A stretch of 64,000 nt of DNA from an uncultured virus (IMG/VR IMGVR_UViG_3300021511_000004) (IMGVR_UViG_3300021511_000004); one strand, 5' to 3'. Positions 3,508 through 55,091 are shown, numbered from the stretch's first letter. Notes: a model not told the origin generated them from the sequence alone. A program made the numbers and translations.

Positions 3508-4163
3508 AAATATTAGTTGTTGGTTTTCCAAGAAGTGGTACTAGCTTAACTCACAGGATATTTGCGAAACATCCAGCTGTAAAAGGGATGCTTTTTGAAA
3601 AGTGGGCATTAAAGCAAGCTCCGAATATAAATGGATTGATTAAAAGGAATCCAATGTTCAAGGTAACATGTGGCGAAAAAATTATATGGGAAAAGCGAGT
3701 AACTGGAAAAATTGGCAAGACAGATGAAAATATTATTGATTATTGTTTAAAATGGAATGATTGGTTTAAAGATGAAGCGAAAATAGTTCAAATTATAAGA
3801 CACCCATTTGACTCATTAAATTCTCTTGTTATATCAAAGAAAAGATTTCCAAGAGGGCCGCTTTTTGGTACTGTCTATCCAGAGTATTTAAATAATGCTG
3901 TGAGATTTATAAATGGTATAAAATCTATACCTAATTGTATGACTATTAAATATGAAACTTTGATTTCAAATCCAGACAAAACAATAAAAAGATTATATAA
4001 ACATTGTAATATTGATCCAAGTCATAAACATAAAGAAGCGATGAAAGTAAGAAGAATTTTTAACTATAAAAAGAAAGACTTTTTATTTAAATATGATGAT
4101 AGACTACAAATAATCATTGATACTTTTAATGAAGTAGAAGGGGTTGAGTATCATGGCTTGTAA
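3504..4163 (+). CDS. Sulfotransferase family protein (tandem paralog)
   Basis: GFPRSGTSL, IIRHPFDSLNS, KYETL. Confidence 0.85.
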   Translation: MKILVVGFPRSGTSLTHRIFAKHPAVKGMLFEKWALKQAPNINGLIKRNPMFKVTCGEKIIWEKRVTGKIGKTDENIIDYCLKWNDWFKDEAKIVQIIRHPFDSLNSLVISKKRFPRGPLFGTVYPEYLNNAVRFINGIKSIPNCMTIKYETLISNPDKTIKRLYKHCNIDPSHKHKEAMKVRRIFNYKKKDFLFKYDDRLQIIIDTFNEVEGVEYHGL

Positions 4164-18263: not shown

Positions 18264-18644
18264 ATGACAGATGAAAAATTAGATTATAGACTAGAAACTT
18301 TTTATAAATATAAAGGGAAAGTTTTGAGAGTTGTCGATGCTGATACAGTTGATGCAGAACTTGAGTTGGGATTTGGAATTACAATGACACAACGATTTAG
18401 AATTGATAGTTTTGATGCACCTGAGACATGGAGACCAAGAAATGAAGCTGAAAAAATACATGGGAAGGAAGCAACACAAAGAGCGATTCAACTTCTCGCC
18501 GAAGAAGAATTGATTTTTGTTACTTCAAAAACAGCAGGTATTTATGGACGATATGGAGCACAAATTTTCTTAAAAGACGGAAGAGATTATGCAGAAGTAA
18601 TGATTCAGGAAGGATTTGAGAAAAAAAATGAGTATCTTATGTAA
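18264..18644 (+). CDS. Thermonuclease (SNase-like)
   Basis: RVVDADTVD, RIDSFDAPE, GIYGRY. Confidence 0.85.
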   Translation: MTDEKLDYRLETFYKYKGKVLRVVDADTVDAELELGFGITMTQRFRIDSFDAPETWRPRNEAEKIHGKEATQRAIQLLAEEELIFVTSKTAGIYGRYGAQIFLKDGRDYAEVMIQEGFEKKNEYLM

Positions 18645-18810
18645 TAAAGCAAAGTGTCGTAAATGTGGGGATATAATTGAATCTAAACACCGGCACGATT
18701 TTGTTAACTGTAAATGTGGCGCAATTTTTGTCGATGGTGGAAAGGATTATCTTCGTCGTGGAGGAAAGGATTTAGAAGATATAATTGAATTATCAGAAGA
18801 AGATGGGGAG

Positions 18811-18846
18811 TAAGTGTCAATGGAAATAAATCTCCATTGACACTTA
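18811..18846. terminator. Bidirectional terminator at the strand switch
   Basis: TAAGTGTCAATGGA...TCCATTGACACTTA 14-bp stem. Confidence 0.8.
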
Positions 18847-18851
18847 TTTAA

Positions 18852-18942
18852 TGGTGGGCCAGAAAGGATTTGAACCTTCGCGGAATCATAGATTCACCGG
18901 GTTAAAAACCCGATACTCTCGACCTGGCTGAGTGACTGGCCC
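18852..18942 (-). tRNA. tRNA-Lys(UUU) with long variable arm
   Basis: Cloverleaf, GGGCCAG/CTGGCCC-ACCA, V-stem GAATC/GATTC. Confidence 0.85.
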
Positions 18943-19833: not shown

Positions 19834-19930
19834 TGGAGACCCTGGTAGGATTTGAACCTACGTAGTTAAATAATTTAACATATAAAATGATTTGCAGTCA
19901 TCTGCCTTAACCGGACTTGGCAACAGGGTC
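19834..19930 (-). tRNA. tRNA-Cys(GCA) with long AT-rich variable arm
   Basis: Cloverleaf, U73, CCA; V-stem GTTAAA/TTTAAC. Confidence 0.85.
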
Positions 19931-25304: not shown

Positions 25305-25388
25305 TGGAGCGGCCGACAGGATTTGAACCTGCGATGCCGAAGCGGGAGGTTGGAAACCTCCTGTAGTACCAGACTCTACAACGGCCGC
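25305..25388 (-). tRNA. tRNA-Gly(UCC) with extended variable arm
   Basis: Cloverleaf; V-arm GC-TTCG-GC. Confidence 0.9.
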
Positions 25389-27625: not shown

Positions 27626-27713
27626 TGGCTCCGAGGGCAGGGATCGAACCTGCGATGGTCTTTCGACACGGGTGGTTAACAGCCACCTGCTACTGCCACT
27701 GAGCGACCTCGGA
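27626..27713 (-). tRNA. tRNA-Asn(GUU) with long variable arm
   Basis: TCC acceptor, G73; V-arm GTC-GAAA-GAC. Confidence 0.9.
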
Positions 27714-27906: not shown

Positions 27907-28003
27907 TGGTACCCCTGGTAGGAATTGAACCTACAACCTCACGCCTATCTAGCGCCAACTCCGGGCATAAACCGGATGCTCTGCCTTATTGAGCTACAGG
28001 GGC
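27907..28003 (-). tRNA. tRNA-Ile(UAU)-type with 25-nt variable region
   Basis: TCCGG-TT-TAT-GC-CCGGA; G37. Confidence 0.8.
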
Positions 28004-30439: not shown

Positions 30440-30941
30440 ATTTTGTACCTTCTCGGCATTTATCGCATAATGTTGCTTTCCAATAACCTTCAACATTTAC
30501 TTTTCCGGGTTTGCCACATCTTTCGCAAGTTTCGTATGAGTTATATTCAGCATCGCTAATGGCATCTGAAATTTTTTCTTCTGTTGTCATATATAATTTT
30601 CTTTTGAAATGTATAATTTTCCAGTATAGTCTTCCCCATTTTCTTTTAAACATAAAATGACTAATTATATAATTAACCTTATTTATAAAAGTTTCTGGAG
30701 ATTCAGTGCCATAATAAAATCGTAACCCACCAAATTTTTCTTTTACTTGGTGAGCAGTAACCTTTATATCTTTATTACCAATTAACAAAGTAATTTTTTC
30801 ACATAAATTATGAATGAGATCATACCAACCATCTCCACATTCAAATCCCCAGTGCATACAGGTGTCTCTCATATCTCCACCATAATCTTTAAATATAACT
30901 GGGAATTTTTCAACTAGCTGTAGTTCGAGTTCTTTTTTCAT
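30438..30941 (-). CDS. Phage hypothetical protein
   Basis: GFECGDGW, QVKEKFGGLRFY, CERCG..TLC. Confidence 0.7.
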   Translation of the reverse strand: MKKELELQLVEKFPVIFKDYGGDMRDTCMHWGFECGDGWYDLIHNLCEKITLLIGNKDIKVTAHQVKEKFGGLRFYYGTESPETFINKVNYIISHFMFKRKWGRLYWKIIHFKRKLYMTTEEKISDAISDAEYNSYETCERCGKPGKVNVEGYWKATLCDKCREGTK

Positions 30942-31486
30942 GTTACTAACCCCTTAATATCAAAATGAAATATTTGTGGTTCCTTTTCTGGAGGACATAC
31001 TTCAGTTAAGTCTTTTGGATGCCATGTCCAACCTTCAATGTCTGCAGCTAATCCATAATGAGTATCTTTGACTCTTTGAATTACATATTGTTTTTCTCTC
31101 ATATCTTTCATTGCAGCATTTACAGTATGCGTTCGTCTCGTATTAGAAAGATCTTTTGATATAACAATACGCATACCCTTTGTCATTTCTAATTCGTTCA
31201 TATTTCTAACCTTTCGACATCAAAATGAAATATATGTGCTTTCTTTTCCGGCACAGATATTTCAGCCAAATCATGATAATGCCAATAGAAAGAGTTAATC
31301 ATTGCAGCTTTTCCATATTTGGTGTTTGTAATACTATCAATTCTATATTGTTTGCCTGCCATATTTCTCATTTCTCTGGTTAGTGTGTGTGTTTGACTTG
31401 TTCTATAAGGATCATCTGATATAGTAATATGCATACCTTTTTCCATTTCACTTTCTTTCATTATTCACCTATTTTTTGTTAAGGTT

Positions 31487-31875
31487 TGGTGGAGGCGGTC
31501 GGAGTTGAACCGACGTCCACAAAAGTTCAAATCAAGTATCTACACTCATAGCTAACTTTTAAAATTCTTTAACACCACGTTCAATGACGGAGTTAGCAAA
31601 ACAACAGTGCTAAAGTAGCCCATTTGCTGGTAGTTTTCAAAACATAAATGCCAGTGTACAGAACTAATTGCCCATTTATATTTCTATCTCTCTAGTCGAC
31701 GCCCCATCCCAATCCGAGAGAATGAAAGGGTGGAACGGATTATGCCGCTAGGGCAAGATCTTCGTAATAATCATCTGCGATTATATTTAAGTGGTCATGT
31801 TTTTATACGGAGTCACATACCATCTCCGGAGTGCAACCATCATCTCTTCTTCTATGTCGAAGCCATTTCGCCCCC
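31487..31875 (-). ncRNA. ssrA: tmRNA; tag (A)ADDYYEDLALAA*
   Basis: 5' GGGGGCGAAATGGCTTCGAC, 3' T arm and CGCCTCCACCA with G3:U, internal tag ORF ending LAA. Confidence 0.95.
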
Positions 31876-32080: not shown

Positions 32081-32620
32081 TCATGGCAAGTTCATTAAAA
32101 TGTTTTTTACAACGTTTCCATCACAACCTTTAAATTGTTTCATGATTGGTCCCATTGCTTGCATTTTATTTTTATAAATTGAAAAGCCTATATTTTCATA
32201 TATCCATGCAGAAATTTCTTCCTCTGTTGCTTGTTTGGGAAGATATTCTTGTGCAATTTCAATCTTTGGAGAAGTTAATGAATTACCCAATTCTTGAAAT
32301 TTTTTATTAACTAACTTTTTTAATTCCGCAGGGCTAATTCCATTAATATCAGATTCAGTTATATATTTATCAGAATATAATAATCTTTCTTTTTCATTTT
32401 TGATATATTTTTTCAATAATTTAATAGTATCATCATCAGTTGCATCAGCTGGTTTTACACCAATTTCAGGAAACATGCTTATAATTGCTCTAGCAACAGT
32501 TTTTTGTGCAATTGCCATACTAAATTTATCTTCTGCAACAACTCCATGCTTTCTTAATTTTATTTCTATAGACATAAATGTTTTAAGATCTTCTCTTATT
32601 CGTTTCAATATTTCAGACAT
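32081..32620 (-). CDS. GatB/YqeY-domain protein
   Basis: EIAQEYLPKQATEEEI...MGPIMKQFKG..DGNVVK. Confidence 0.75.
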   Translation of the reverse strand: MSEILKRIREDLKTFMSIEIKLRKHGVVAEDKFSMAIAQKTVARAIISMFPEIGVKPADATDDDTIKLLKKYIKNEKERLLYSDKYITESDINGISPAELKKLVNKKFQELGNSLTSPKIEIAQEYLPKQATEEEISAWIYENIGFSIYKNKMQAMGPIMKQFKGCDGNVVKNILMNLP

Positions 32621-33492
32621 TTTTCTCCTCTCTTATTCAATAAGCATTACTTGAATTGCTCCTCTTTCATGTTCATCGACTTCTATATAACATTTTGTTT
32701 TTGTCCAATCTCTAGTAGGTATAACGTAACAAGTTTTAATTTCATGAACCGGATAACAAAGCCCGTCATGTATAGTCATCACTTTTAAATCTGTGGGAGC
32801 TTGTTTTTAAACGTCTACGAACATCATCAATTGTTTTTAAGTCATATGCCATGATATATTCCTTTCATGTTTATTCGTTATCCCATTCTTTTCTCATTTT
32901 GTCTATGTTTTTCCATTTAATATATAAGTGCTGACATTTTGGACATTGACTGGGACCAGGATTGCTTTCCCATACAAACCCACACCTTAAACATCTATAT
33001 TTTGCTAAAGTTTTCATTATACCACCCAAGGTGTTATCATGTTTGTTGCAGTATTATTAATCCATTCAGTTTCTCTTACATATTTGATACCATTTGTAGA
33101 TGTGTGAATTTTTGCAATTAAAGAATTTGCTACTCCATACTTGCTCATGTAAGTAAGAGTCAAATATGATTCTGCATCTGGTGATTCTGATGGTCTTTTA
33201 GTCCCATCTAAATAATCTTTTACTTCCTCAGAATCCTTACTCATTTTAACCATCCATTGTTCACATATAAAAATAACAGCATCAGCCTCAGTATCGTGAG
33301 CAAGACTTACTGTTAAATTTGCAAGGTGTTGAATTGTGATTCCAGCCCACCCTACAATGGGATTTAACATATTATCTTTAATAATAAAGTATACAGGAGA
33401 AATTTGACCCTTTTCTGCTAAAATAATTGATGTTGTATTAAATAAGTCTTCTGCCATTTTTCTATCTTCATCGTTCATTTTGACTCCTTTTT

Positions 33493-33570
33493 TGGAGGCT
33501 CAGGTGGTGGGGATTGAACCCACGACGCAGGGATCTAGAGGCCCCCGCTCTGCCGCTGAGCTACTGAGCC
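33493..33570 (-). tRNA. Amber-reading tRNA (anticodon CUA), non-canonical
   Basis: GGCTCAG/CTGAGCC-U-CCA, normal D and T arms, loop CT-CTA-GA, extra CAC between T stem and acceptor. Confidence 0.7.
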
Positions 33571-33900
33571 TCATAACAAATCTATAAGACTTGCTAAATT
33601 ATAGTTATACATATAAAATGAATAAAATAAAATGAGAAATATATAAGCAGATCCTAAGTAAATTATTTCACGTTTGTTTAATATCTTTTTTAAAGCACGA
33701 GTTACTACATATGTTAGTAGAATAAGGAACGGAACTTTTAACAACAACATAGCTTCAACTGGTCCAATTAAGTTCATAACCCAATTAACAAAAGGATTAA
33801 GTTCCATCCCACCATTTTGTAATAATATACAAGTACTAACAAAGTCAAAAATATTTAAAATCCATAAAGCTATACATGCTGAAATAAGAAATAATTTCAT
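33571..33900 (-). CDS. Small membrane protein (DUF5658-like)
   Basis: LNIFDFVST...GGMELNPF; three hydrophobic helices. Confidence 0.65.
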   Translation of the reverse strand: MKLFLISACIALWILNIFDFVSTCILLQNGGMELNPFVNWVMNLIGPVEAMLLLKVPFLILLTYVVTRALKKILNKREIIYLGSAYIFLILFYSFYMYNYNLASLIDLL

Positions 33901-34090
33901 CTTTTCACTATACAGAAAAAGTAATCATTTGAACCAGCATCACCAACTAATAATTCAAGTTTGTGATCTTCCAATTCACCATCAATAGCTTCAAATATAG
34001 ATTCATCATTCATTAGAGCATGAGAATATACATTACCATTTTTGTCCTCTGGTATTGGTGTATCATGCGGAAATATTATTTCGGTTTCTT

Positions 34091-34384
34091 TCATAACAAA
34101 TTCAACCTTTCTACATGTTTACTACAAACTTCAGTAGCAATTGCTGTTATTTCATTATTCAAATCTGGCTCTCTAAACTCTATATAGGGAATATCTTCCC
34201 ATTCAAACTTTTGTTTGATATTTTCTAGTTGATTTAGTCCCTTAACACCCAAGTATATTAAGGTACCGTTTGACCAACGGAACGAAGGACCGCGAAGCAG
34301 GAATTCAGCAACTGCATGACCTGCTTGCACGGCCCTTTGTGATATTGAAAGATCCTTACGCACAATCACAAACAACTTCGTCAT
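34091..34384 (-). CDS. Peptidyl-tRNA hydrolase, Pth2 family
   Basis: KLFVIVRKDL..QRAVQAGHAV, LIYLGV, FREPDLNNEITAIA. Confidence 0.85.
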   Translation of the reverse strand: MTKLFVIVRKDLSISQRAVQAGHAVAEFLLRGPSFRWSNGTLIYLGVKGLNQLENIKQKFEWEDIPYIEFREPDLNNEITAIATEVCSKHVERLNLL

Positions 34385-34691
34385 CAATCTGATTCTCCCA
34401 CTCTTCTTTAATTTTATCAAGAAGATGAGAACTTGGTCTATTACCATCTCTTGGTTGTTCAATCATATCGTAAGGAGTGTTATTAAACATATTACAATAA
34501 ATAATGTGTCTATGTCTAAACTCCCAACCATAGTTATTCCAACCTTCATTATAACTATTACAAAGTTGTTTGGTTTTTTCAGAAGCTGAATCCCAATTTT
34601 TCGGTTTCCTTAATGGTTTACAGGTTCTGATTTTTTGTGCTAAAGATTTTTGTTCTTCTTTGATCTTGTGTTTTAATTCTTTGTACGTCAT
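34356..34691 (-). CDS. Hypothetical protein overlapping and upstream of Pth2
   Basis: GAGGAG SD; FRHRHIIY..PYDMIE motif. Confidence 0.7.
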   Translation of the reverse strand: MTYKELKHKIKEEQKSLAQKIRTCKPLRKPKNWDSASEKTKQLCNSYNEGWNNYGWEFRHRHIIYCNMFNNTPYDMIEQPRDGNRPSSHLLDKIKEEWENQIDDEVVCDCA

Positions 34692-43736: not shown

Positions 43737-43815
43737 TGGAAGCCCCTCCAGGATTCGAACCTGGGAAAATGACGGGTCCAAGGCCCGCCGTGTTGAACCG
43801 CTTCACCAAGGGGCT
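43737..43815 (-). tRNA. tRNA-Gln(UUG)
   Basis: Cloverleaf; C33. Confidence 0.88.
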
Positions 43816-44693: not shown

Positions 44694-44781
44694 TGGAGCC
44701 GGTAGAGGGATTCGAACCCCCGCGTGACAAAGTCATCCTGCTTACAAGGCAGGTGCTCTCGGCCAGCTGAGCGATACCGGC
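44694..44781 (-). tRNA. tRNA-Thr(UGU) with long variable arm
   Basis: GCC acceptor; V-arm TGAC-TTT-GTCA. Confidence 0.9.
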
Positions 44782-51848: not shown

Positions 51849-51860
51849 GGAGGAAAATAT

Positions 51861-54800
51861 TTGATTTCAATAAAAAATTCGTTTGCAAATTGCTCAGTTT
51901 GTGATCTTTTAGATGCACCATCATGTATTCTTGAGACAAATTGTAAAAGTGATATTACTAAGGTTGATGTTGTTTTTATTGCGGAAAATCCTGGAAAAGA
52001 TGAAGTTAAAAAAGGAAGTCCTTTAATAGGAAAAGCAGGAAAAAAGTTCCGAAAATATTTTGAGAGATTCGGAATAAATAAAATGAATTATTTATTAACT
52101 AATGTTGTTTTATGTCAAACAAAGAATCTAGATGGAACAACTGGTAATCCCACTAAAGAAGTCATAGAATTATGTAAAGATAATTGTATGCAAATTATTA
52201 AGGCATGTAATCCTAAATTAGTTGTATTAATGGGAACCAGTCCAATGTCAGCATTCGGAATTGCGAAAGCAGGAATTACAAATATTCATGAAAGATACGA
52301 GCTATTTGATTGGGAAGGATATAAAACTATGATTATTGTACACCCTTCGTTTGTCAATAGAAATCAATCATGGGAACCTAAATTCTCTGAAGCAATGTCT
52401 AGAATCTCTGAGATGTTAGGAGGGAAAAAAATGGAGATAGCAGTTGAATCGAAAGCTAAATCGTTAGGTAAAGGGATTCATAGATATAGAATTCCAGATA
52501 AGTTTTATACTGAGAATTATAGATTAATTAATGTTCAATTTTTAAATAAGACAAGTCAAGTCTTATATATTTTCAGAGATAAAGATAATAATAAAGTATT
52601 TCATAAAGAAAATGATGATTACATTTGTTATCAAGCTCCTAAGGGAGTTGAAACAAGAAAACTTGTACCATATGAAAAATTAAATCAAATATCAATTAAA
52701 TTTAAAGATAGATATAATCTAGATTCAAATATAACATATGAAGGTGATGTAAGAATTGCAACTAAACATGCTATGGATTACTATCATTATAATAAGGGAG
52801 AGTGTAAGAAAACTAAATCTAATATCATGTTCTTTGATATTGAAATTGACACTGGAGACGAACGAGTGTTCCCCAAACCAGAAGATGCAGCATTCCCAAT
52901 TAATATGTTGACAACAATTCATAATGGTGAAAAAATATGTTATGTAATTGATAATAAGACTGAACCGATAATAAAGAGACAAGATGTTGAATATAAAATC
53001 TTTGCTAATGAAAAGAAATTTCTACAAACGTTCATTAAAGATTTTAAAGATACAGCCCCAGACTTTCTTGCTGGGTGGAATTGTATTAGCTTTGACCTTT
53101 CATATATTTATAATAGATTACCTCAGATTGGAATGCAACAGACAAGCATGACATCTTTTGGTGAATTTTATATTGATGCTTCTAAGTTTGTATGCCATAT
53201 ACCTGGAACTGTAGCAGTAGATCAGGATTTCTTATATCGGACATTTACATTTACAAAAATGGAAAATTATAAGTTGGGGTTTATTGCTGATCATGAACTT
53301 GATGGTTATACAAAACTTGATTTGCCTTTACCATTCAATGAAATGTACTGGAAGATGTTGAATAAAACAATTGAATACAACATCAGAGATACAGAATTGC
53401 TTGAGAAATTAGATGAAAAATTAGCTCATATCAATCTTTTGAATGAGTTGAGAATTATTTGTAAAGCCAACTTTGAATCTACTTCATCATTTGGTCAGAT
53501 TGACTCTTTAATGGTTTCGTATGCTAAGAACAAAGGAATAGCATCAAAGAATAGTGATCCTCATATTGTTAAAGAAGAATATCCAGGAGCATTTGTATTT
53601 GAACCAATACCGGGAGTATATGATTGGATTACAGACTTTGACTTTGCATCTCTATATCCAAGTTTAATGATAACATATAATATTGGAGTTAATAGTTTTG
53701 TAATGAAAACTGAAGACCCAAGTATGGGATATGATCTTGTTTATGATAAAGAAAATTTACCAGATGTAATTAATGTTATAATCGACCCTTTATATGAAGC
53801 AAAAGTTGTACAAATGAATACAAAAGAATTGTATAAAATCATACAAAAGAAAGAACTAATTCATACAATCAACGGGTGTTTCTTTCACCCTCATAAGAAA
53901 GAATTTTCTATGTTTGGTGAGGTTGTTAATATGTTAATGACTTCAAGAAAGGGCTATAAAGGAAAGATGTTTGATGCAATTGAAGAAAAAGATAAAGACG
54001 AAGAAACATTTTATTACATAAGACAGTTAGTATATAAGGTGTTGGCAAATACACTATATGGAGTTGTTGCAAATAAAGCATTTAGATTTTTTGATACATC
54101 TTTAGCATCAGCTGTTACTCTTACTGGTCAAGAAGCATTAAAGACTTCAATTGTTCAGGGTGATGCTTATATGAGACATCTTGATACAGGAAGACCATTT
54201 GTTGAACCAACAAAAATTACAAAAGAAGAAATGTTTGCAAATAAAATGCCTAAAAGAAGTAATGAGTATATCATAACTGGAGATACTGATTCAATTTTTT
54301 GTTGTTTTGAAAATTTCAGTGATGATCTATCAGTTGGAAATCTTCATGATTGGTGTGAGCAAATTGAAAACTTTTTAAATGAAGAGAAGATGATTGATGT
54401 AGTTAAAAGTCATAACGTTGATTTGGAGTTTAACAGACTGAAGTTGAAAAATGAATTGGTTATATCACGGGGTTTATTCTTAGCCAAGAAACGTTATGCT
54501 ATTCGAGTTATTAATAATGAAGGCAAAGATGTTGATAAAATTAACTATATGGGTGTTGAAATTAAGAGATCAGATTACCCAAGGAAATCAAAAGAATTTT
54601 TAGTTGAGCTCTTGGACTTATTATTAAAATCAAAGAGAGTTTCATTAAATAAATTGATGGAGTTTGTTAATAGAGAAGAACAAAACTTCATTAAAGCAAT
54701 TTTAGATGGTGATAAGAGTATTGCTCGACCTGTATCATATGGAAAGAAATTAAAAGATTATAAACTTGTTCCACAGGGAGTGAAAGCAATGGAGAATTGG

Positions 54801-55091
54801 AACACGTTAATGTATGATATTCATAAAACTGGCAATAAAGCATATATGTACTGGGTTCAAGGTATTGATCTTGAAAAAGCTCCAAAAGACGTACAAGAAA
54901 AATATCATAAGTTTGTGAAGGATGGAAATAAGTTAGAAGTAATTGCCATTCCAGATGAAGAACCACGGTTACCTAATTTCTTTATTCCAAATAAACAAGC
55001 AGCATTAAAATTTACGTTTAATAATAGGTATGAATTGATGTTAAAACCTTTAGATGTTAAGGTGAAAAGTAAGGAAGTTCTAACTTTCTAA
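51861..55091 (+). CDS. Family B DNA polymerase with N-terminal family-4 uracil-DNA glycosylase domain
   Basis: AENPGKDE..PLIGKAG, HPSF; exonuclease FDIEID, GWNCISFD, YNIRD; polymerase DFASLYPS, KVLANTLYG, GDTDS, KKRY. Confidence 0.93.
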   Translation: MISIKNSFANCSVCDLLDAPSCILETNCKSDITKVDVVFIAENPGKDEVKKGSPLIGKAGKKFRKYFERFGINKMNYLLTNVVLCQTKNLDGTTGNPTKEVIELCKDNCMQIIKACNPKLVVLMGTSPMSAFGIAKAGITNIHERYELFDWEGYKTMIIVHPSFVNRNQSWEPKFSEAMSRISEMLGGKKMEIAVESKAKSLGKGIHRYRIPDKFYTENYRLINVQFLNKTSQVLYIFRDKDNNKVFHKENDDYICYQAPKGVETRKLVPYEKLNQISIKFKDRYNLDSNITYEGDVRIATKHAMDYYHYNKGECKKTKSNIMFFDIEIDTGDERVFPKPEDAAFPINMLTTIHNGEKICYVIDNKTEPIIKRQDVEYKIFANEKKFLQTFIKDFKDTAPDFLAGWNCISFDLSYIYNRLPQIGMQQTSMTSFGEFYIDASKFVCHIPGTVAVDQDFLYRTFTFTKMENYKLGFIADHELDGYTKLDLPLPFNEMYWKMLNKTIEYNIRDTELLEKLDEKLAHINLLNELRIICKANFESTSSFGQIDSLMVSYAKNKGIASKNSDPHIVKEEYPGAFVFEPIPGVYDWITDFDFASLYPSLMITYNIGVNSFVMKTEDPSMGYDLVYDKENLPDVINVIIDPLYEAKVVQMNTKELYKIIQKKELIHTINGCFFHPHKKEFSMFGEVVNMLMTSRKGYKGKMFDAIEEKDKDEETFYYIRQLVYKVLANTLYGVVANKAFRFFDTSLASAVTLTGQEALKTSIVQGDAYMRHLDTGRPFVEPTKITKEEMFANKMPKRSNEYIITGDTDSIFCCFENFSDDLSVGNLHDWCEQIENFLNEEKMIDVVKSHNVDLEFNRLKLKNELVISRGLFLAKKRYAIRVINNEGKDVDKINYMGVEIKRSDYPRKSKEFLVELLDLLLKSKRVSLNKLMEFVNREEQNFIKAILDGDKSIARPVSYGKKLKDYKLVPQGVKAMENWNTLMYDIHKTGNKAYMYWVQGIDLEKAPKDVQEKYHKFVKDGNKLEVIAIPDEEPRLPNFFIPNKQAALKFTFNNRYELMLKPLDVKVKSKEVLTF

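Follow-up and report, generated by a model that had tools for sequence, protein, structure and literature searches.

A privately mutated amber suppressor tRNA gene of a standard-code jumbo phage and its neighbour gene of predicted PTH2 fold

Suppressor tRNAs have been reported in recoded phages and in some of their standard-code relatives, where they may represent a step before recoding, according to the accessible text of Borges et al. (bioRxiv 10.1101/2021.08.26.457843). The Xanthomonas jumbo phage XacN1 carries two tRNAs with a CUA anticodon, for which the accessible part of its description found no target (Yoshikawa et al., PMC5852040). The comparison presented here bears on the question of why standard-code phages carry amber suppressor tRNAs, starting from a tRNA-derived gene with a CUA anticodon at positions 33493–33570 (minus strand) of a 64,000-nucleotide (nt) stretch of DNA from an uncultured virus (IMG/VR IMGVR_UViG_3300021511_000004), the whole of which is called the window hereafter. 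The gene is a real, privately mutated phage amber suppressor of a standard-code jumbo phage, and it belongs to a module of a PTH2-fold gene and a suppressor tRNA that is conserved and apparently undescribed. Across this module, suppressor tRNAs are tightly and directionally linked to the PTH2-fold gene, and a third of the loci have the matching stop codon at the start of that gene. The gated gene would provide a natural target for the suppressor tRNA and suggests a testable role for the PTH2-like protein.

XacN1 resembles the window in its CUA anticodon, in being a jumbo phage with a large tRNA set, in the use of TAG as a stop, and in the lack of a read-through target in the accessible text (PMC5852040). 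It also encodes a PTH2-like homolog, but this lies more than 3 kb from any tRNA, unlike that of the window, and no hydrolase link is reported in the accessible text of the XacN1 paper (PMC5852040). The window tRNA further differs from those of XacN1 in a 3-nt insert at the junction of the T and acceptor stems, in a G at position 37, and in a C31.U39 mismatch. Phages recoded at TAG, such as Lak and crAss-like phages, likewise encode a tRNA-CUA, and one contig carrying the module (G010) also has in-frame TAG codons. Unlike these phages, the window and four large genomes (G001, G006, G007, and G009) show no recoding. The “code change module” of Borges et al. consists of a tRNA, a synthetase, and a release factor, without a PTH2-like gene, and the term “peptidyl tRNA hydrolase” has no occurrence in the accessible text (bioRxiv 10.1101/2021.08.26.457843); the recoding papers as a group appear to lack it. 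PTH2 had already been noted in jumbo phages by Iyer et al. (2021; PMC7824862), in whose accessible text the word “suppressor” does not occur, and the accessible part of a 2026 survey of jumbo phages links suppressor tRNAs to recoding only (PMC13037316). No paper linking PTH2 or peptidyl-tRNA hydrolase with a phage suppressor tRNA was found, subscription journals and closed supplements lying outside the search.

The amber tRNA gene and its private features

The tRNA gene was recognized by direct reading of the sequence and by the Rfam tRNA model RF00005. Its anticodon, CUA, lies at 33538–33536 in a 7-nt loop (CTCTAGA) with G at position 37, above a stem (GGGGC/TCCCT) whose closing pair is the C31.U39 mismatch. 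The acceptor stem has 7 bp (GGCTCAG/CTGAGCC), the D stem reads GCTC/GAGC with GG in the D loop, the variable loop has 5 nt, and the T arm reads GTGGG-TTCAATC-CCCAC. At the 3′ end, the T stem is followed by three additional bases, CAC (33504–33506, minus strand), inserted between its 3′ strand and the 3′ strand of the acceptor stem, and then by the latter strand, U73, and an encoded CCA. All four helices can be formed, and the T stem is separated from the acceptor 3′ strand by the three unpaired bases. The core bases of a tRNA, U8, the D-loop GG, U33, the T-loop TTCNANN, and the G53–C61 pair, are present in the sequence and are invariant columns of the alignment with relatives. Direct reading thereby bears out the CUA anticodon, C31.U39, the CAC insert, and U73, all of which had been pointed out in a preliminary description made from the sequence alone.

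The Rfam model scored the gene at 34.3 bits against a gathering score of 29, with an E-value of 0.0021 over the whole window and of 1.6e-5 over 501 bases. The match (33506–33564) is local, covering model positions 7–64 only and leaving the acceptor stem unaligned. ARAGORN called 24 other tRNAs and a tmRNA in the window, all on the minus strand, and left 33493–33570 uncalled even with lowered thresholds or with introns allowed. Since an encoded CCA ends 23 of these 24 tRNAs, the register of a 7-bp acceptor stem, U73, and CCA is supported.

The window is part of a jumbo phage genome. Relatives of its family-B DNA polymerase (PolB) were found at 67–69% identity on IMG/VR contigs, including the 248-kb contig G001, which encodes capsid, portal, terminase, sheath, baseplate, fibres, and pieces of a multisubunit RNA polymerase (RNAP), a structural gene set from which the window is taken to be a piece of such a phage. 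Exact and near-exact DNA searches of viral contigs with the window tRNA gave no match, and the 12-kb neighbourhood of the tRNA has no close phage relative in GenBank. The order tRNA-Val, tRNA-CUA, and tmRNA is common to the window, G001, and G009. In G001, the tRNA-CUA is canonical, scoring 63.8 bits over the full model, and is called by ARAGORN as a perfect cloverleaf with the loop CTCTAAA, U73, and CCA. The closest relative found, the metagenome locus L215, whose PTH2-like protein is 83% identical to that of the window (60% for the 153-aa gene downstream of the tRNA and 68% for a YqeY-like gene), also has a canonical tRNA-CUA. The window tRNA is a positional ortholog of a canonical jumbo-phage tRNA-CUA. 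When it was aligned with 15 syntenic or module-linked relatives, 97.6% of the cells were paired, and 14 of the 21 pairs had changes on both sides. None of 500 shuffles supported the cloverleaf as well, and slid controls reached 40–53%. Such strong support over 16 sequences indicates that the gene descends from a tRNA under structural selection.

Two other identities, a tRNA-Pyl and a Sec-like tRNA with a 9-bp acceptor stem, were considered and rejected on features of the tRNAs themselves. The extended 5′-leader pairing is not conserved in G001, and the CCA register is the same in 23 of the 24 window tRNAs. The Pyl label attached to CUA tRNAs is an automatic naming by ARAGORN, and the D and T loops of the relatives are ordinary.

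TAG is a stop codon in this phage. It ends five of the 91 predicted window genes, including the DnaB-like helicase gene, and both this gene and the PolB gene are intact in code 11, which confirms what the preliminary description had said of them. No open reading frame (ORF) interrupted by an in-frame TAG with at least 50 codons on either side was found in the window, against 13 chance joins for the TGA control, and no special downstream back-up stops were found after its TAG-terminated genes. G001 is 92% coding in code 11 and gains less coverage when TAG is read as sense than when TGA is. Its capsid, portal, terminase, sheath, fibre, and RNAP genes are intact, and among 13 TAG-joined ORFs examined there, the true-looking gene pairs have a Shine–Dalgarno-like motif and an ATG right after the TAG. 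Among ORFs of at least 150 codons, TAG ends 26 of 221 in G001, 31 of 218 in G006 (286 kb, 95% complete), 47 of 251 in G007 (315 kb, complete with terminal repeats), and 15 of 193 in G009 (223 kb), and in none of the four does TAG-as-sense gain more coverage than the TGA control. The 6-kb loci are too noisy for coding density to separate recoding, a TAG-as-sense gain of at least 0.15 occurring in 10/63 and a comparable TGA gain in 12/63. The statement that the genome is not globally recoded is therefore right, for the window lineage and, judging from these four genomes of 223–315 kb, beyond it, and the data support the gene as one for a tRNA with an amber anticodon, in a phage for which TAG is still a stop.

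The unusual features of the window tRNA were compared with those of other CUA tRNAs by a pattern scan of viral and metagenome contigs, in which position 31, positions 37–39, and everything 3′ of G53-T-T-C were left free. The scan yielded 192 unique CUA tRNAs among the matches listed, with flanks for 80 loci per scan, and the fractions below are lower bounds; the pattern fixes GTAGCTC, GAGC, CTCTA, and GGGTTC and so favours canonical tRNAs. A strict, acceptor-specific pattern recovered only two true relatives. The 3-nt junction insert is absent from all 192 listed tRNAs and from all 15 syntenic or module relatives, its columns being unique to the window in the 16-sequence alignment; the T stem is joined directly to the acceptor strand in 190 of the 192, the other two having an ambiguous offset of 2. 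In tRNAs, the junction of positions 65 and 66 normally has no unpaired bases, as the T and acceptor stems form one continuous stacked helix, which RNase P, the CCA enzyme, and EF-Tu read. The insert can be read as a tandem duplication, CAC CAC or ACC ACC, a form that is the usual product of slippage.

At position 37, A is found in 188 of the 192 listed tRNAs and G in four, and the 55 unique module-linked suppressor tRNAs, which were found without a sequence pattern, all have A37 and none G37. An unpaired 31:39 is common (37/192 listed and 12/55 module-linked). The discriminator base is U in nine and A in seven of the 16 aligned sequences; because it varies, U73 is not a conserved identity mark, and the Cys/Gly-like acceptor proposed in the preliminary description is weakly founded. 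The combination of U73 with G1–C72, G2–C71, and C3–G70 is reminiscent of tRNA-Cys. No amino-acid identity is assigned, because the discriminator and the acceptor stem vary among relatives and because the sole alignable in-frame TAG, that of G010, falls in a variable column of the protein. In this set of sequences, the oddities of the window tRNA are private to one phage and do not mark a new class. The “bulged” shape, which had been taken for a special kind of tRNA, is a private mutation of one copy and is not conserved.

The PTH2-like gene, its linkage to stop-reading tRNAs, and its stop-codon gate

A gene for a PTH2-fold hydrolase-like protein lies at 34091–34384 on the same strand as the tRNA and ends 520 nt upstream of it. 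It encodes 97 amino acids (aa) from ATG, within an ORF that reaches 34462 from a TTG, and its relatives are 94–98 aa long. The window protein matches Pfam PTH2 (PF01981) at 19.9–20.3 bits, below the gathering score of 23, and 25 of 36 family members match with E-values up to 0.01. The best Protein Data Bank (PDB) hits of the family profile are Pth2 structures (E 3.6e-5). The AF2 model of the window protein has a pLDDT of 94.1, and all 13 Foldseek hits with E-values up to 0.001 are Pth2-type chains (TM 0.62–0.79, E down to 7e-6). Judging from this model, the neighbour protein has the Pth2 fold, which it would have in common with archaeal and eukaryotic Pth2 (PDB 2zv3, 3erj, 1xty, and 1q7s) at a TM of about 0.75 and with distant profile similarity. 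The phage family departs from Pth2: the Gly-Lys-rich stretch of Pth2 coincides with a 2-residue gap of the family when the profiles are aligned, and the Q, H, E, and T that are invariant in the family are its own. Its hydrolase activity is a prediction. The catalytic residues of Pth2 are Lys and Asp, and the alignment is gapped around that Lys.

The end of an upstream gene, p111 (34356–34691, minus strand), overlaps the start of the PTH2-like gene. Its 111-aa product is predicted to be all-helical (AF2 model, pLDDT 90), and it has no Pfam family and no Foldseek match at E-values up to 0.001; the best VIA-align Z-score, 5.7, is tied with many helical hairpins. In 38 of 72 loci, a homolog of p111 immediately precedes the PTH2-like gene, and in L370 the two are fused. 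The module consists of p111, the PTH2-like gene, and then the tRNA-CUA in one orientation; in the clade of the window, a DUF5658 gene and a 65-aa ORF are inserted before the tRNA.

The linkage between the PTH2-like gene and stop-reading tRNAs was examined in both directions. A PTH2-like profile search around 199 unique CUA-tRNA loci detected the gene beside 87 of them, on the strand of the tRNA in 87/87; where at least 1.5 kb was available on both sides, it stood beside 44 of 86. The gene lies within 150 nt upstream of the tRNA-CUA in 30 loci, and single-sequence tblastn gave 53 adjoining loci. The reverse test started from the protein and used the best 80 of 162 hits, representing 67 unique loci and biased to the closer subfamily. 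A stop-reading tRNA lies within 3 kb in 55 of these 67 loci (54 CUA and one UCA), always on the same strand, and among the 61 loci with any tRNA it is the closest one in 52, while CUA accounts for only 55 of the 203 tRNAs in these PTH2-like loci. In G006, 17 nt separate the tRNA-CUA from the PTH2-like gene, whereas the nearest other tRNA is 24 kb away. In the huge phages LR756500 and LR756501, CUA tRNAs lie 0.8 and 2.2 kb downstream of that gene. No tRNA lies within 3 kb of the PTH2-like homologs of XacN1, phiAS5, and RAS14.

Varied anticodons among homologs, which the preliminary description had put forward as speaking against its proposal, were not seen. All 68 module-linked suppressor tRNAs (55 unique) read a stop codon, CUA in every case except for one UCA, and the orthologs in G001, G009, and L215 are CUA. 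The suggested link of the tRNA to neighbouring enzymes has proved strong, with the PTH2-like gene 0.5 kb upstream in the window and a same-strand linkage of such genes to stop-reading tRNAs across many phages. Of the earlier interpretation as a whole, the amber tRNA, the use of TAG as a stop, and the enzyme link stand, whereas the conserved special class and the Cys/Gly-like acceptor do not.

The link goes further in a third of the loci, where the stop codon read by the tRNA also gates the PTH2-like gene. In 46 of 130 unique PTH2-like genes, a ribosome-binding motif and an ATG are followed by one to four codons, an in-frame TAG, and then the domain, with no start codon between the TAG and the conserved domain (for example L063, L092, L288 of LR756501, and L287 of LR756500). 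The single TGA-gated gene (L359) adjoins the single tRNA-UCA, and none of the 130 is gated by TAA. With this pattern, making the PTH2-like protein requires the tRNA to supply an amino acid at UAG, and we infer that the gated genes are translated through UAG read-through. The gate and p111 are nearly exclusive: 44 genes are gated without p111 and three with it, while 59 have their own start with p111 and 24 without it. The window gene belongs to the ungated class with p111 and starts from its own ATG.

G010, the contig of L063, has TAG at codons 3 and 38 of its PTH2-like gene, and TAG ends only two of its 72 genes. It carries two tRNAs-CUA 0.4 kb apart, at 18287–18360 and 18787–18862, one of which is canonical while the other has G37 and C31.U39. 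A scan of the window for UAG-gated leaders found none, against two for the TAA control, and when the window and six related genomes were searched for other genes gated by Met-X-UAG, these were no more frequent than in the TAA and TGA controls.

A tmRNA gene lies within about 1–2 kb of the PTH2-like/tRNA-CUA module in the window (31487–31875), G001 (68211–68561), G009 (167085–167470), L305 (1356–1752), and L313 (855–1186), which fits a link to the rescue of ribosomes that have run past a stop. In L313, the only tRNA-like match, at 3924–3988 and about 0.65 kb downstream of the PTH2-like gene, is weak (31 bits); its D region is shortened and one of its loops contains TTCTAAAA. It may represent another module tRNA that has degenerated. 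In Lak-B5 (L284, 2359–2431) and Lak-A1 (L285, 2233–2305), an ochre-reading tRNA-UUA lies on the strand of the PTH2-like gene, 0.6–0.7 kb upstream of it.

Weakening, tuning, and other readings of the window tRNA

At the family level, the tRNA is most likely an elongator suppressor of amber codons that receives its amino acid from a host enzyme, and a hydrolase-like gene with a Met-X-UAG start would be made only when the tRNA reads UAG. The fold and the gene logic suggest that the PTH2-like protein would then be made as a consequence of suppression and act downstream of it or back on it. It may clear peptidyl-tRNA after read-through or, alternatively, may hydrolyse the suppressor's own ester and thus limit read-through. 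In the window, the PTH2-like gene with its own ATG would be independent of the tRNA.

We hold, with rather more confidence than doubt, that the window feature is a weakened or inactive amber suppressor tRNA inside an intact module. Three private changes probably weaken it. The 3-nt tandem duplication lies at the junction at which T and acceptor stems are normally stacked without a break, the C.U mismatch opens the closing pair of the anticodon stem and also permits a slip to an 8-nt loop, and G37 replaces the near-universal A37. According to the “extended anticodon” rules known from laboratory amber suppressors, a CU-CUA-AA loop together with a paired 31:39 makes for efficient reading of UAG; the loop of the family fits this description, and G37 and the unpaired 31:39 of the window tRNA should lower its efficiency. 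The tRNA is most likely still transcribed and cut from an operon transcript, and would work poorly or not at all as a suppressor. A loss of its function would be tolerable, as TAG is an ordinary and infrequent stop here, no UAG-gated gene occurs in the 64-kb window, and the PTH2-like gene starts from its own ATG. The window copy would then be a convenient natural mutant for studying what damage to the junction and the anticodon arm is tolerated.

Several observations weigh against decay. Among the listed tRNAs, C31.U39 accompanies G37 in two of four and A37 in four of 188 (Fisher p 0.005 without the window), and this co-occurrence argues against reading these two changes as pure decay. G010 has in-frame TAG codons in its PTH2-like gene together with a tRNA bearing G37 and C31.U39, though it also has a canonical tRNA-CUA; an anticodon arm with these two changes may thus be a functional variant. 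The acceptor stem, T arm, U73, and CCA of the window tRNA are intact, and three of its pairs differ from those of G001 by compensatory changes, which suggests that selection on the fold acted until recently. Other window tRNAs with structured insertions still score well and look functional. The window PTH2-like protein keeps all the invariant residues and has a 96%-identical homolog elsewhere, on a 12.4-kb contig, and such intact, well-conserved partner genes indicate that the module as a whole is maintained. Finally, the window is only part of the genome, and targets containing TAG are possible in the rest of it.

These observations overlap with what favours a fully functional tRNA whose weak 31:39, G37, and junction bulge are adaptive and tuned to low or conditional read-through of UAG, the main rival explanation, to which we give a minor but appreciable chance. 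C31.U39 with G37 recurs in independent lineages, the helices, the CCA end, and the module partners are intact, the tRNA sequence is identical in two assemblies, and other tRNAs of the same phage tolerate structural additions. However, tuning of this kind is at odds with the uniqueness of the insert among the 192 listed and 15 related tRNAs, with the retention of A37 in 55/55 module-linked tRNAs, with the absence of a natural UAG target in the window, and with the usual lack of unpaired bases at the 65/66 junction.

A broader proposal in the same direction, which we regard as unlikely, is that, across large phages, the amber tRNA together with the PTH2-fold protein makes up a read-through circuit that limits itself, G37, the open 31:39, and the bulge of the window being the tuning of a deliberately weak suppressor rather than decay. 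If so, the tRNA would open translation of the PTH2-like gene through the Met-X-UAG leader or the p111 partner, the protein would act specifically on the acylated or peptidyl form of the suppressor, and a phage that ends a tenth of its genes in UAG could use UAG as a conditional sense codon.

It is improbable that the tRNA inserts no amino acid and instead directs the PTH2-like hydrolase to ribosomes at a UAG codon, forming a device for termination or rescue that replaces release factor 1. The common use of TAG as a stop in module-bearing genomes, the lack of conservation of the discriminator and acceptor stem across the family, and the tRNA-UUA near the PTH2-like gene in Lak phages, where TAA is a stop, would agree with such a device. 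Against it, 46 of the 130 hydrolase-like genes need UAG read-through at about codons 3–5, which the device would block, and G010 has a second in-frame TAG inside the domain.

Decoding of a quadruplet, or frameshifting at UAG-containing sites, by a slipped stem with an 8-nt loop is scarcely credible. The alternative loop noted in the preliminary description is real as a prediction, the minimum-energy structure of RNAfold having the G-run slipped by one and the loop CCUCUAGA at −32.4 kcal/mol. Yet this fold borrows D-stem bases and ignores tertiary structure, no relative in the alignment has the G-run that permits the slip, and the energy is ordinary (z −1.87, with nine of 200 shuffles equally good). 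An assembly or sequencing artefact that added CAC to a gene canonical at the junction is just as hard to credit: three-base slips in short repeats such as CAC CAC can arise in assembly, but contigs from two runs (X1, 7,886 nt, depth about 25; X4, 1,732 nt, depth about 8) span the tRNA with no differences and, compared at contig level, speak against a one-off assembly slip, although both runs are possible sources of the window DNA and are not independent support.

Neighbouring genes and other tRNAs

The window has a G+C content of 31.8% and encodes, besides many small genes, PolB fused to a UDG domain, the DnaB-like helicase, a dCMP deaminase, and an NAPRTase. The PolB gene (51849–55091, plus strand) specifies a single 1080-aa protein with an N-terminal domain of the uracil-DNA-glycosylase superfamily.

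Around the tRNA, all genes discussed here are on the minus strand. A 65-aa ORF (33897–34094) without a Pfam or PHROG match lies between the PTH2-like gene and a gene for a DUF5658 membrane-type protein (33571–33900; Pfam PF18902, E 4.4e-9), whose stop codon abuts the 5′ end of the tRNA. DUF5658 homologs occupy the same place in G001, L162, L271, and L164. Directly downstream of the tRNA is the 153-aa gene, p153 (33017–33478), with a Shine–Dalgarno-like motif 5–10 nt past the CCA of the tRNA; homologs follow the tRNA-CUA in G001, L215, L240, L202, and L162, and a protein search with this gene gave no usable locus. Between the window and G001, amino acid identity is 58% for p111, 67% for the PTH2-like protein, 38% for DUF5658, and 37% for the 153-aa gene. 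Further downstream are a gene for a YqeY/GatB-tail-like protein (32081–32620; Pfam YqeY, E 1.5e-7; PHROG 1460, “tRNA amidotransferase”) and the tmRNA gene (31487–31875; ARAGORN, and Rfam at 138 bits) with the tag ADDYYEDLALAA. Just downstream of the tmRNA, two adjacent paralogous genes of 87 aa each (30938–31201 and 31198–31461) overlap by 4 nt.

The tRNA arrays of the window (18852–46540), G001, and G009 cover all amino acids except Trp and Tyr, and the CUA anticodon differs by a single base from that of Tyr and from that of Trp. The tRNA-Gln(UUG) of the window (43737–43815, minus strand) has C33 in place of U, G37, and U73, while its ortholog in G001 has U33 and G73. Six window tRNAs, all on the minus strand, carry an extra variable-region hairpin of 9–21 nt, in some cases capped by GAAA or TTCG, namely those for Lys (18852–18942), Cys (19834–19930), Asn (27626–27713), Thr (44694–44781), Gly-UCC (25305–25388), and Ile-UAU (27907–28003). 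These tRNAs normally have a short variable loop, and in G001 such an arm is limited to Ile-UAU, Gly-UCC, and one Met tRNA.

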